From Gemmatimonadota bacterium (GTDB lineage Bacteria; Latescibacterota; UBA2968; UBA8231), in contig JAYOYH010000011.1 of NCBI GenBank assembly GCA_038153405.1, positions 47,560 to 111,559 of the forward strand: 64,000 bases of DNA, given 5' to 3'. The position numbers and the translations under genes were made by a program. The notes under the pieces are model-generated. The model had not been told where the DNA came from. It was given only the letters and a program-made list of their open reading frames with translations, and ran no database searches. The stretch's first letter is position 1; every line of letters starts with the position of its first letter. This document shows, in pieces, positions 53,026-58,893 of this stretch.

Positions 53026-54248
53026 TACATCGCGGCAATGCGCGCCATAGCCTCGTCGATCTTGTCTCGGTGATTAAAGGCCGAAAGGCGAAAATAGCCT
53101 TCGCCGGCCGCGCCAAAGCCCGCGCCCGGCGTGCCAACGACGTTGACCTTTTCCAGCAGATGGTCAAAGAATCCCCAGCTATCGTGGCCCTCGGGCGTCC
53201 TCAACCAGAGGTACGGTGCGTGCACGCCACCGTAGACCTGTATTCCGGCCGCCGTCAGCTTTTCGCGCATGATAGAGGCATTTTCCAAATAGAACGCAAT
53301 AATTTCTTCAATCGCCCTTTTGCCTGCGGGCGAGTAGGCCGCTTCCGCACCGCGCTGCACGGGGTACGCCACGCCGTTAAACTTGGTGGAATGTCGGCGC
53401 GCCCACAGGCGGTGCAGGTCGACCGCCTCGCCGGCCTTGGTATAGCCCTGCAGCTCCTTGGGCACCACCGTATAGCCGCAGCGGATACCGGTGAAACCGG
53501 CATTTTTCGAGAACGAGCGAAACTCGATGGCCACCTCGCGTCCCCCCTCGACTTCGTAAATCGAATGCGGTATCGAATCGTCGGTTATGTAACCCTCGTA
53601 GGCCGAGTCGAATAGAATGATCGCCTTTTCCCGCTTGGCGTAGGCAATCCACTCGGCCAGCGCCTCGCGCGTCATCACTGTGCCAGTGGGGTTGTTGGGC
53701 GAGCACAGGTAAATGATATCGACGCTGCCGTTGGGCAGCGGCGGCGCAAAGCCGTTATCGGCCGTGCAAGGCAGGTAGACCATCCCTTCGTAGCGCCCGG
53801 CCTTGGACGCACCCGTGCGCCCGGCCATGACGTTGCTATCGCAATAGACCGGATAGACTGGATCGGTCAGCGCCACGGTGCAATCGCTGCCGAAGATCTC
53901 CTGGATGTTGCCCGAATCGCACTTGGCGCCGTCCGAGACAAAGACCTCGCTGAGATCGATCTGCACGCCGCGCGAGGCAAAATCGTTGTCGACGATGGCT
54001 TGGCGCAGCCAAAGCTGCCCCTGATCGGGCGGATAGCCCTGAAAGCTCTCGTCGTGCGCCATTTCTTCGACCGCGTCTTTCATCGCATCGACGATGGGGC
54101 GCGGAATACCCTTGACGACGTCGCCTATGCCTAGGCGAATGACGTCGGCCTGCGGGTTGGCCGCGACAAAGGCGTTGACGCGGCGTCCAATTTCGGGGAA
54201 TAGGTAACCGGCTGCTAGTTTGAGGTAATTCTCATTGATGTATGCCAT
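53025..54248 (-). CDS. dapL: LL-diaminopimelate aminotransferase
   Basis: [44 protein letters not shown]. Confidence 0.95.
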
Positions 54249-54340
54249 GGTATTTATTTTCTTCCTCTAATTGAAGATTGACGCGTATTCTGTGCGGCAA
54301 AATCTAACGCAGCATTTCCTTTACATCAAGCGAGTACACT

Positions 54341-55300
54341 ATGGACATCAGTTTTATGACCAGCGCCGGCGAAGAGGGTAATTGGAGCTTAGACGAGTGC
54401 GCGCGCTGGGCACGGGAAAACGAATTTGACTGCGTGCGCCTAGCCGACAGGGGCGCACTCGATTCGCAGAAAATAATCGACGGCGGCGCCGCCCAAGTGC
54501 GCGATGCGCTGGCGCGGCACGACGTATACCTGTCCTGCATTACTGCGCACCACAATCTGCTCGACGACGACGAGAACGCCGCCCGCGCCGAGCAGGAGCG
54601 CCTCATAAAAGCCATCCAATCGGCGCGCGCTCTAGAGTGCCCAGTAATTATCACCAGCAGTGGATCGCCCGTGCGCAACGGACAATTCTACGGCATGTTT
54701 TCCTCGCCTCCGGGCAATCCCTCCGATCGCTCCGACGAACTGGTAGAGCGCTTTCGCATCATGTTTGCACCGGTGATGGAAGTGGCCGAAGACCTCGATA
54801 TCAAGGTCTCGCTCGACGTGGCCGTGCGCATGGGACAGATCGGCTGCAACCCGGAGATGTGGGAAAAGATTCTCGACGCCGTTCCCTCGCCCCACCTCGG
54901 CCTGTCCTGCGACCCTTCGCACTGGCTGTGGATGGGCATGCTGCCCGCCGAAGACGTCATCCGCGACTTTGCCGGAAAATGGTACTTCGCCGACGTCAAG
55001 GACTGCGAGATCAGCGAGCGCATGCGCTACCGCCAGGGCATTATCGGCAACTGGTGGTGGCAGTATCGAGTGCCCGGCCGCGGCCAGCTCAACTGGGCCA
55101 CCATTATCGGCGCCCTGCTCGAATCGGGATACAGCTACGTGCTATGCGTCGAAAACGAGGATCGCGGCTTTCCCGGCCTCGAGGGTTTTGCCTATGGCGG
55201 CAAGCATCTGCGCCAGTTTCTGCCGCCCAGAGGCACCGACTATGCGCGCCCGTCGCTGCCCTGGAAAACGAGCTCATGGGAGCGACGCGCGGACGGTTGA
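54341..55300 (+). CDS. Sugar phosphate isomerase/epimerase TIM-barrel protein
   Basis: LGLSCDPSH, DVKD, YRVPGRG.LNW, CVENED. Confidence 0.8.
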   Translation: MDISFMTSAGEEGNWSLDECARWARENEFDCVRLADRGALDSQKIIDGGAAQVRDALARHDVYLSCITAHHNLLDDDENAARAEQERLIKAIQSARALECPVIITSSGSPVRNGQFYGMFSSPPGNPSDRSDELVERFRIMFAPVMEVAEDLDIKVSLDVAVRMGQIGCNPEMWEKILDAVPSPHLGLSCDPSHWLWMGMLPAEDVIRDFAGKWYFADVKDCEISERMRYRQGIIGNWWWQYRVPGRGQLNWATIIGALLESGYSYVLCVENEDRGFPGLEGFAYGGKHLRQFLPPRGTDYARPSLPWKTSSWERRADG

Positions 55301-55304
55301 TGCC

Positions 55305-55332
55305 TTGACTTCGGAGCGTATTGCGCTATCCT
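55305..55332 (+). promoter_or_regulatory. sigma70-type promoter of the glnS leader
   Basis: TTGACT-16-TATCCT. Confidence 0.6.
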
Positions 55333-55368
55333 TAGGTGCACTACACGATCGACATTGAGCCAAGTACT

Positions 55369-55428
55369 ATGCCCATCCGCCAACAGCAGCGACAGCAAAA
55401 GCGATTGCCAATACCCGTCGGCGGATAG
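55369..55428 (+). CDS. Gln-rich attenuator leader peptide MPIRQQQRQQKRLPIPVGG
   Basis: ATG CCC ATC CGC CAA CAG CAG CGA CAG CAA AAG ... GGA TAG; 5 Gln in 6 codons directly upstream of glnS; SD is weak. Confidence 0.75.
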   Translation: MPIRQQQRQQKRLPIPVGG

Positions 55429-55459
55429 TCCAGTGCACGAACAAACCACATTACGAGAC

Positions 55460-55496
55460 AAACCCGCTGCCGATTCCGCGCAGCGGGTTTTTATTT
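55460..55496 (+). terminator. Attenuator terminator in the glnS leader
   Basis: AAACCCGCTGC-9 nt-GCAGCGGGTTT-TTATTT. Confidence 0.85.
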
Positions 55497-55548
55497 GGGC
55501 CAAGCGCCAACCCTGCGCGGAGTCGGCGCGGCCGGTAAGCGAGGAACT

Positions 55549-57264
55549 ATGAGCGACGCGAAGACAGATCGCGACAGCGAGCAAGGCGGCAATGAAGCAG
55601 GGCGCGACTTTCTGCGCGAAGAGATCGATGGCGACCTCAACAGCGGGCGCTACAAAGCCGTCGTCACCCGCTTTCCCCCCGAACCCAACGCCTATATGAC
55701 GATCGGCAACGCCAAGGCCATTTGCATTAACTTCGGCATTGCCGCCGAGTATGGCGGCCGCTGTCATCTGCGCTTTGACGACACCAACCCGGCGCGCGAA
55801 GAACAGGAATTCGTCGATGCCATAAGGGAGGATATCCGCTGGCTCGGCTTCGACTGGGGCCAGCACGAATATTACGCATCGGACTACTTCCCCCAACTCT
55901 ACGACTGGGCCGTCGCCCTGATCAGAAAGGGCCTAGCCTACGTAGATGACCAGTCGCCCGACGAGATCCGCGCCAACCGCGGCACGCTCACCGAACCGGG
56001 CACCAACAGCCCCAACCGCGAGCGCACGATCGAGGAGAATCTCGACCTCTTCGAGCGCATGAAAAAAGGTGAGTTCCCCGACGGTGCGAAGGTGCTGCGC
56101 GCCAAAATCGATATGACCTCCGCCAATATCAACCTGCGCGACCCCGTCATGTATCGCATTCTGCACATGCACCACCACCGCAGCGGCGACCAGTGGTGCA
56201 TTTACCCGATGTACGATTGGGCGCACGGTCAGAGCGATTCACTCGAGGGCATCACCCACTCAATGTGCTCGTACGAATTTGCCAACAACCGCCCGCTCTA
56301 CGAGTGGTTTATCGAACAGTTGGGCATTTTTCCATCGCGCCAGATCGAGTTTGCGCGCGGCAACATAACGTATACCGCGCTGTCCAAGCGCTATATACGC
56401 GAGATGATGGAAAAGGGCATTATCAGCGACTGGGACGATCCGCGCACCTACACGCTGCGCGGCCTGCGCCGCTTGGGTTGTCCGCCCGAAGCCGTGCGCC
56501 GCTTCTGGCGCGAAGTGGGCATAGCCAAGCGCGACAACAACATCGATATCGCCCTGCTCGAGTACTGCATGCGCGACCAACTCAACAAAACGGCGCCGCG
56601 CCGCATGGCCGTTCTGCGCCCCTTAAAAGTCGTCATTGAAAACTATTCAGAGGGCGATGGGGAACTGCTCGAGGCCGTCAACAACCCGGAAGACGAAAGC
56701 GCGGGCACGCGCCAAGTGCCCTTTTCGCGCGAACTGTACATTGAGCGCGAGGACTTTATGGAGGATCCGCCCCGCAAGTTCTTCCGCCTGGCACCCGGGC
56801 GCGAAGTGCGCCTGCGCTATGCCTACTTTATCACTTGCACCGAGGTGGTGAAAGACGCAAGTGGCGAGGTCGTCGAACTGCGCTGCACCTACGACCCGGC
56901 TACGCGCGGCGGCGATGCCCCCGACGGCCGCAAGGTGAAAGCCACGCTGCATTGGGTCTCTGCTCAGCATGCTACCCAAGCAGAAGTGCGGCTCTATGAT
57001 CGCCTATTCAAGGTGGAAAACCCGCGTAAATTTGCCGAGGGCGGCAGCATTATCGACAATGTAAATCCGGACTCGCTTGAAATCATTTCGCCGGCCTATC
57101 TGGAGCCCGCCCTAGCCGAAGCGGCGCCGGGCGACGCCTTCCAGTTCGAGCGCATTGGCTATTTCTGTGCCGACGCCAAAGACCACACCGGGGAACGGCC
57201 TGTATTCAATCGCACGGTCACGCTGCGCGACACCTGGGCGCGCGTTCAAAAACAAGACGCCTAG
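55549..57264 (+). CDS. glnS: Glutaminyl-tRNA synthetase with non-canonical signature motif
   Basis: [57 protein letters not shown]. Confidence 0.93.
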
Positions 57265-57399: not shown

Positions 57400-58893
57400 C
57401 TAAGAAGCGGGCTGGGACGGCCTCCACTCCTTCTCCAACTTGGCTGCCTTCTTTTTCGATAACCCACCCAGCGCGTTGATCGCCTGCAGCAGGCGCATGC
57501 GCACGATGTCTTGTCCCAATAAATGCGCGGTGTCAAAGAGCGGAGGGCCGACGCGCGATCCGACGAGCGCAGCCGTCAGCGGAACCGTTACGTCGCGCAC
57601 TGGCCAAGACCAGTATTCGGCAATGGAGCGCACGGCCAACTCGATGGGCTCGCGATTCCAATCCAACAGGGCATCTAGGGTCCAGATGGCCGTTTGCAGC
57701 ATCTCAACCACCTCTTCCTGCGTGCGTTTTTTGGGCACCAAATCGTCGGCGACAGGGAAAACTTCACGCGCCCAAAAAAATGCCGCCTTCGGCATGAAAT
57801 CGCCCAGTGTTTCCATGCGCTGCTGCAGCAGCGGCACGATCTGCGCGACAAATTCGTCGTTGAGCATCCACGCCTTCAACTCGCCCAGCACCTGCTCTGC
57901 CGTGCGCTCTTCACGCAGATAGCGCCCGTTGAGCCAGTTGAGCTTTTCCAAGTCGAAAATCGACCCCCCGAGATTAATTCGATCGGCATCGAAGTGCTCG
58001 GTGAGCTGCTCAAGGCTAAACTTCTCCTCCTCGCCCAGCGGAGGATAGGCCATGAGCGCCAGATAGTTGAGCAGCGCATCGCTGAGGTAACCGGCGCGGC
58101 GGTAATACTCGATAGATGTCGGATTGCGCCGCTTTGACATTTTAGTGCCATCGGGGTTGAGCAAGAGAGGCAGGTGCATGTATTCGGGCGGCGGCCAGCC
58201 AAAGGCCTCGTAGAGCACTAGGTGCTTGGGCGTAGAGGTAATCCACTCCTCGCCGCGGATCACATGCGTAATGCGCATGTGATGGTCGTCGACGACAGCG
58301 GCCAAGTGATAGGTGGGAAAGCCGTCCGACTTTAACAGCACCTGATCGTCGGATTGGGCGTAGTCCAATGCAACAGTACCGCGCAGGCGATCGCGCACAA
58401 TACAGGTACCTTGCCGCGGCATCTTGAGGCGGATCACGTGCGCTTCACCGCTAGCCACCCTCCTGCCAACTTCGTCCTTGTCCAAGTGTATACAGTGGCG
58501 ATCGTAGCCCAGACGCCCTTTGTTCTGCGACTGCTCGGCGCGCAGGGCGGCCAGGCGCTCGGCCGAGCAAAAGCAGGGGTAGGCGTGCCCCGCGTCGACC
58601 AATTGGTCGACGTGCTGGCGATACAACGCCAAGCGCTCGCTCTGGCGATAGGGGCCGTAGGGGCCTCCGACATCCGGCCCCTCGTCCCACTCTAATCCGA
58701 TCCAGCGCAGCGACTGTATCAGCGCCTCTTCGTACTCTCTGCGCGACCGCGTCTGATCCGTGTCTTCGATGCGCAGAACAAACTGTCCGCCGTACTTCTT
58801 GACGTAGAGCAGGTCGAACAGACCCTGGTAGGCCGTTCCCACGTGAGTGGGCCCCGTCGGCGAGGGCGCCAGACGCACGCGAACTTCGCTCAT
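57400..58893 (-). CDS. gltX: Glutamyl-tRNA synthetase
   Basis: [40 protein letters not shown]. Confidence 0.96.

Follow-up and report, generated by a model that had tools for sequence, protein, structure and literature searches.

A short open reading frame (ORF) rich in glutamine codons precedes glnS in a 64,000-nucleotide stretch of DNA, probably from the Latescibacterota (hereafter the window), and we propose, with a probability of roughly 0.82, that the run of Gln codons is the sensor of a classical ribosome-mediated transcription attenuator whose target is glnS. Judged from its sequence, the element most likely belongs to the classical leader-peptide attenuators. What appears new here is the amino acid sensed, the target gene and the lineage; the surprise is smaller in that a mechanism of this kind is textbook. 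Along the DNA, a promoter-like site is followed by the Gln ORF, segment 2, the terminator and glnS, and every element named in a preliminary description of this region was found where that description had placed it. The features are as follows.

54341-55300, plus strand: upstream xylose-isomerase-like TIM-barrel gene (PF01261)
55305-55332, plus strand: promoter-like site of the sigma-70 type, TTGACT-16-TATCCT, likely the glnS promoter
55369-55428, plus strand: leader ORF of 19 codons, MPIRQQQRQQKRLPIPVGG-stop
55375-55381, plus strand: segment 1, a partner of segment 2 only in this genome and close relatives
55381-55398, plus strand: putative regulatory Gln-codon run, CAA CAG CAG CGA CAG CAA, five Gln in six codons
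55417-55426, plus strand: segment 2, with the invariant core GCGGA at 55421-55425
55463-55470, plus strand: segment 3, the terminator 5' arm and partner of segment 2, with an alternative register reaching to 55474 here
55480-55487, plus strand: segment 4, the terminator 3' arm, which pairs with segment 3
55488-55496, plus strand: U tract of the predicted intrinsic terminator
55513-55531, plus strand: extra downstream arm, complementary to 55464-55483
55541-55545, plus strand: Shine-Dalgarno sequence of glnS, GAGGA, −7.3 kcal/mol
55549-57264, plus strand: glnS, glutaminyl-tRNA synthetase of 571 aa, start ATG at 55549, HIGH motif read as TIGN
57400-58893, minus strand: gltX, glutamyl-tRNA synthetase, convergent (TIGR00464 above cut-off)

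The target gene downstream of the leader is, by sequence, a glutaminyl-tRNA synthetase, as had been proposed: its product scores 687.6 bits against TIGR00440 (cut-off 425.8) and matches the solved GlnRS 5bnz over its full length at 741 bits. The genome that carries it is 4.86 Mb with 59% GC and is 93% complete. The HIGH motif of this GlnRS (55696-55710) reads MTIGN here and in all relatives of genus g1, and LTIG(H/N) in four genomes of genus g14; the motif of TyrRS in the same genome reads TVGN. The TIGN form resembles the motif of bacterial TrpRS. Two metatranscriptome runs hold small parts of the region, and their contigs skip 55310-55612.

The 19-codon ORF with its six-codon run is present just as first described. 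When the intergenic region was shuffled with its dinucleotides preserved, an ATG ORF with at least five Gln in eight codons arose in 2 of 20,000 shuffles. Genome-wide, at least four Gln in eight codons occur in only 4 of 4,790 upstream ATG ORFs, and the glnS leader is the only one of these four with a terminator after it; together, these counts exclude chance as the origin of the leader.

Conservation was assessed on glnS loci gathered without regard to the presence of a leader, which yielded 235 distinct upstream regions of at least 400 nt. A short ORF with at least four Gln in eight codons is found in 13 of the 235, and 12 of those 13 come from genera g1 and g14 or from metagenome sequences related to them. 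These 12 distinct leaders, from nine genomes of the two genera and three metagenome contigs, bear out the expectation that a Gln-rich upstream ORF would be kept in relatives; the sequences that bear them are probably all Latescibacterota, and their GlnRS proteins share 77-100% identity. Of the other 223 glnS upstream regions, one (L320) has a comparable Gln ORF, with a TTG start and no terminator.

The orthologous leader ORFs span 14-25 codons. Despite these length changes, an ATG stands in frame, two to eight codons ahead of the Gln run, in all 12, and every leader has a run of four to six Gln codons in which both CAA and CAG are used. Counted over 11 leaders, with the near-duplicate L112 excluded, 59 of 219 codons (27%) encode Gln, versus 3.9% genome-wide; the 59 divide into 26 CAA and 33 CAG, and the two interchange. 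The Shine-Dalgarno sequence of the leader ORF is weak, at −1.9 kcal/mol here. In 9 of the 12 leaders it does not reach −3 kcal/mol, and it does not outdo random coding sequence, versus −5.5 to −7.9 kcal/mol for glnS itself. The leader ORF is a candidate for translation, with a conserved in-frame ATG and a weak Shine-Dalgarno site.

The terminator is present as a hairpin at 55463-55487 (−17.8 kcal/mol) followed by TTTTTATTT. Its previously described 11-bp stem resolves into a core of 8 bp and three A-U pairs contributed by the U tract, and two further pairs beyond these close the loop. Across the 12 leaders, the core pairs segment 3 with segment 4 in 96 of 96 alignment cells, varying from G-C to G-U only. 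Segment 3, CCCGCTGC, is invariant in all 12, as would be predicted of a strand that has to pair in two ways; similar conservation of this arm has been remarked in other attenuators, at least in the part of PMC1262725 available to us. The alignment has three conserved blocks: GCGGA, CCCGCTGC, and the 3' arm with the U tract. GCGGA is invariant in 12 of 12 leaders and starts 17-22 nt after the end of the Gln run in each of them. It falls in two different reading frames among the leaders and is still kept, suggesting a role at the RNA level. The leader stop codon lies 5 or 19 nt past the start of GCGGA, and in L113 10 nt before GCGGA.

Pairing between segments 2 and 3, the postulated antiterminator, exists here (−11.8 kcal/mol as a duplex), but the register originally given for it is complete in only 3 of the 12 leaders. 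The conserved form pairs (G/A)GCGG with CCGCU (55420-55424 with 55464-55468) in 12 of 12; this core is 5 bp in all leaders and extends to 8 bp in g14. In 11 of 12 leaders, segment 3 finds its best partner in segment 2. Over eight columns, 88.5% of cells are paired, a level reached by 3 of 500 shuffles and compared with 28-71% for slid controls, although the 12 leaders are kin and kinship inflates such helix pairing counts. In the modeled structures, the antiterminator would exclude the terminator, as both use segment 3. The helix between segments 1 and 2 fared less well. It forms in this genome (−11.3 kcal/mol as a duplex) and is not general: 4 of 12 leaders have it complete, 7 of 12 have at least six of its seven pairs, g14 lacks it, and 171 of 500 shuffles reach its pairing level. 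The covariation expected of these helices was found once, as one pair of helix 2:3 changed on both sides; the terminator core has no two-sided change. Because helix 1:2 is incomplete in most leaders and lacks covariation support, the masking of segment 1 by a stalled ribosome, which had been put forward as the trigger, would not be a general one.

An inverted copy of the terminator region, overlooked in the preliminary description, lies at 55513-55531, just 3' of the U tract. With this arm included, 55463-55536 folds at −44.8 kcal/mol; by eye, the arm was found only in G001 besides this genome, with G-U changes. According to the fold, the arm could sequester segments 3 and 4 once polymerase has read through, and so could stabilize the read-through RNA. 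Other kinds of RNA element were also considered. Rfam gave three chance-level matches within 54000-57000 and none on the leader at E-values up to 10, so a T-box or a glutamine riboswitch was rejected. The terminator as a repeat element was rejected as well, since its pattern occurs at one place in four of five genomes; the second match, in G062, lies inside a coding gene.

To place a ribosome on the leader, we folded only the RNA ahead of it, up to segment 4. In all 12 leaders, segment 3 paired more with upstream RNA when the ribosome stood on the Gln run than when it had reached the stop codon. The gap between the two states was at least 0.3 in 8 of the 12 leaders, this one included (0.70 versus 0.16), and small in the remaining four (L003, 0.10; L113, 0.22; L005, 0.09; L114, 0.01), of which two, L005 and L114, offer segment 3 another partner past the stop codon. 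Folding with masked segments, a check proposed at the outset, thus gave the predicted direction throughout and a clear switch in two-thirds of the leaders. The Escherichia coli controls returned, for stall and stop, respectively, 1.00 and 0.06 (thrL), 0.71 and 0.03 (trpL), 0.74 and 0.48 (hisL), and 0.98 and 0.62 (pheM). When the RNA behind the ribosome was left free to pair, the contrast was largely gone because segment 3 then pairs with the CAG codons of the run. In full-equilibrium folds, the terminator prevails in nearly every state, in the E. coli controls too, and the switch must therefore be kinetic.

In the proposed mechanism, RNA polymerase would start near 55339 and a ribosome would translate the leader. 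With Gln-tRNA(Gln) scarce, the ribosome would wait on the Gln run, with about 20 nt still separating it from segment 2. Folding predicts that segment 2 can pair with the terminator 5' arm while the 3' arm has yet to be transcribed, so that helix 2:3 would form first and polymerase would read into glnS. With Gln-tRNA plentiful, the ribosome would reach the stop codon and cover segment 2, the terminator would form, and transcription would end near 55492-55496. If the leader were untranslated, helix 1:2 would form in this genome and lean towards termination. We infer that the leader senses Gln-tRNA directly; the result would be a feedback that raises GlnRS when charging of tRNA(Gln) lags.

Which gene the terminator serves bears directly on this proposal, since the hairpin could instead be the terminator of the upstream TIM-barrel gene only, with the glnS promoter lying after it. 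A TIM-barrel gene does stand ahead of 10 of the 11 leaders examined, and asnS and an EpmA-like gene of the same genomes are preceded by terminators without cognate ORFs. The promoter, however, lies upstream of the terminator. The promoter-like sequence reported at 55305-55332 is present, one of two such sites in 1.2 kb where shuffles average 0.4, and a matching site occurs at 11 of 11 leaders examined and at all five hairpin-only loci. The same site adjoins glnS in leader-less relatives that keep the TIM-barrel gene: it is found in 21 of the 26 leader-less g14 loci, 29-40 nt before the glnS ATG in 19 of them. A separate glnS promoter past the terminator had been named as a possible objection; a consensus scan found no promoter-like site between terminator and glnS, and in L202 the gap from the terminator to the glnS ATG is only 23 nt. 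In the leader-less g14 loci, the TIM-barrel gene stays in 26 of 26 while the terminator has been lost or remodeled along with the ORF, and the L200 leader has a different upstream gene and no TIM-barrel gene. The retained promoter site, the retained TIM-barrel gene and L200 assign the terminator to glnS, as the preliminary description assumed, and make a terminator serving only the upstream gene barely credible.

A second alternative is that the ORF is untranslated and the element is an RNA-only switch or a leaky terminator, in which the CAG repeats are kept for pairing with CUG in segment 3. The weak Shine-Dalgarno sequence of the leader would fit, as would the complementarity between GCAGCG of the run and segment 3, and the AT-rich relatives that keep a hairpin (about 25-35 bp) without any Gln ORF. 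We nevertheless regard it as very improbable: the in-frame ATG persists in every leader through the changes in length, CAA, the poorer partner of CUG, supplies 26 of the 59 Gln codons, the codons match the downstream enzyme, and Rfam finds neither a T-box nor a riboswitch. A ribosome-coupled attenuator with a broader signal, whether a Gln plus Arg sensor or a gauge of general elongation speed acting through CGA and the prolines after the run, appears improbable too. In its favor, the folding model predicts that any stall up to three to five codons beyond the Gln run favors read-through, CGA-CAG lies inside the run in 10 of 11 leaders, and CGA accounts for 13 of 31 leader Arg codons, versus 7% genome-wide. 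CGA does encode Arg, as it falls on Arg in 16 of 16 conserved protein columns, which rules out its reassignment to Gln. It is probably read by wobble, given that a tRNA pattern search of five genomes returned only ACG-anticodon matches for it, in four of the five. Weighing against the broader signal, Gln outnumbers CGA 59 to 13 and the run of L200 has no CGA; moreover, a single transition separates CGA from CAA, and CAG-CGA matches the GCAGCG found in segment 4, so that an RNA-level or historical cause would explain its presence.

Regarding tRNA-Arg in this assembly, ARAGORN made two long calls, GCG at 95 nt (G000:C19:37471-37565) and TCT at 96 nt (C4:84285-84380). The GCG call sits inside a GatA-like ORF and is probably false. 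Neither an ACG nor a TCG tRNA-Arg was found in this assembly; relatives have ACG.

The Gln-codon attenuator, if such it is, has probably been lost repeatedly. It is carried by 5 of 7 g1 genomes with glnS and by 4 of 30 g14 genomes with glnS, and its absence from the other 2 and 26, respectively, means that the element is dispensable. When 39 selected rows were placed on a GlnRS tree, each of the three sub-branches of one clade (support 100/99) contained leaders, a distribution compatible with a single origin and three or more losses. On an AT-rich g1 branch, the Gln ORF has been lost at five loci (L008, L010 and L115-L117), where the terminator has grown to about 25-35 bp, an almost uninterrupted hairpin that also takes in the U tract (the 115-nt region folds at −46 to −61 kcal/mol). 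Two routes of decay are visible: one lineage has deleted the element, and the AT-rich lineage has turned the terminator into a long hairpin. Leader-less g14 loci such as L207 and L210 carry palindromic insertions and short repeats in or beside the glnS promoter region.

Leader-peptide attenuation appears to be used elsewhere in the lineage, which raises the prior for an attenuator of glnS, where a Gln run stands ahead of the GlnRS gene as a cognate match. At tyrS, 9 of 9 loci (L268, L246-L251 and L253-L255) have a terminator ahead of the gene, and the leader ORF has at least three Tyr in eight codons in seven of them and two Tyr in the other two. The tyrS leader of this genome (L268; G000:C16, ORF start 95618, minus strand) gave a folding switch of 0.86 versus 0.23. 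For thrS, a Thr-rich ORF and then a terminator-like hairpin occur in 10 of 14 loci (L267 and L300-L313; the hairpin of G031 was read by eye), and the AT-rich genomes G003 and G007 have neither. Here, the thrS leader (L267; G000:C1, about 97200-97410) switches from 0.99 to 0.09. A trpE leader (L269; G000:C38, ORF start 17702, minus strand) encodes MDANRLNRREWCWHTADRARDAST, which contains two Trp codons, and is followed by a terminator and a TrpE(G) anthranilate synthase gene. At the loci examined, no convincing cognate leader with a terminator precedes asnS, the EpmA-like gene, trpS, aspS, ileS, valS, argS or lysS, and none precedes the motif-identified metS, cysS, alaS, proS, pheS, serS, hisS or gltX of this genome. 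The asnS terminator was rejected as an asnS leader because it belongs to the upstream gene; leuS begins directly after asnS. The EpmA-like gene encodes a class II synthetase-like protein (PF00152; EpmA/LysRS-like; L290-L295) and comes after a clpX-like gene and its terminator; genomes that have it also have a class I LysRS.

GatB is present in five of five genomes tested, so Gln-tRNA may also be made indirectly. This genome has GatB (L299, G000:C16:74256-75104) and a GatA-like gene (G000:C19:36561-38006) alongside GlnRS and an AsnRS-like gene. Whichever route fills the Gln-tRNA pool, the leader would sense it. One could read these observations jointly: the lineage would have its own set of attenuators (Gln/glnS, Tyr/tyrS and Thr/thrS), GlnRS would be an on-demand second route to Gln-tRNA, given that GatCAB transamidation is also kept, and slow CGA decoding would turn the leader into a two-input Gln/Arg nitrogen sensor with no need of a normal ribosome-binding site. 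As a whole, we consider this joint reading doubtful.

Among known systems, the closest is pheM-pheST of E. coli, where a short cognate-codon ORF is likewise followed by a terminator and an aminoacyl-tRNA synthetase gene, with the same stall-versus-stop behavior in the mask model; the element described here differs in its Gln codons, its glnS target, its unrelated lineage, its weak leader ribosome-binding site and a helix 1:2 that is not general. With trpL, hisL and thrL it shares the four-segment logic and regulatory codons about one ribosome footprint before segment 2, whereas those leaders control amino-acid biosynthesis genes. T-boxes and the glnA glutamine riboswitch also tie tRNA charging or the level of glutamine to leader RNA structure. 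Unlike them, the candidate sensor here is an ORF, and the leader has no Rfam match.

In the part of PMC1262725 that we could draw on, pheST is a classical synthetase attenuator, and leader attenuators are predicted for trpS and leuS in Streptomyces; in the accessible part of PMC2965389, His leaders stand before hisS paralogs in bacilli. These examples, as far as the excerpts go, are cognate-codon synthetase leaders outside Proteobacteria found by comparative genomics, for amino acids other than Gln. The accessible text of PMC2965389 contains "glnS" and "glutamin" zero times, and that of PMC4833913 and PMC1183508 does not mention glutamine. The one relevant entry for glnS is in PMC2659441, which in its available portion predicts a terminator and an attenuator before glnS of Shewanella oneidensis, labeled "tRNA synthetase leader" (Table 3, supplement), and gives no Gln-codon peptide or mechanism there. 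A search for glnS, glutaminyl-tRNA synthetase or Gln codons together with attenuation, run on partial texts and largely outside subscription journals, returned no described Gln-codon attenuator, in line with the initial claim that none was known for glnS. Among 30 sampled gammaproteobacterial regions and in E. coli, no Gln ORF with a terminator precedes glnS. The abstract of Lopatovskaya 2010 reportedly lists no glnS.

Classical attenuation covers a handful of amino acids and, among the synthetases, mainly pheST, with predictions for trpS, leuS and hisS paralogs. If true, sensing through Gln codons would bring the central nitrogen carrier, and glnS, under this kind of control in an uncultured phylum. 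A further question is then how Gln-tRNA synthesis is shared out in a cell that has GlnRS as well as GatCAB, and the leader would provide a portable, 250-nt read-out of Gln-tRNA charging.
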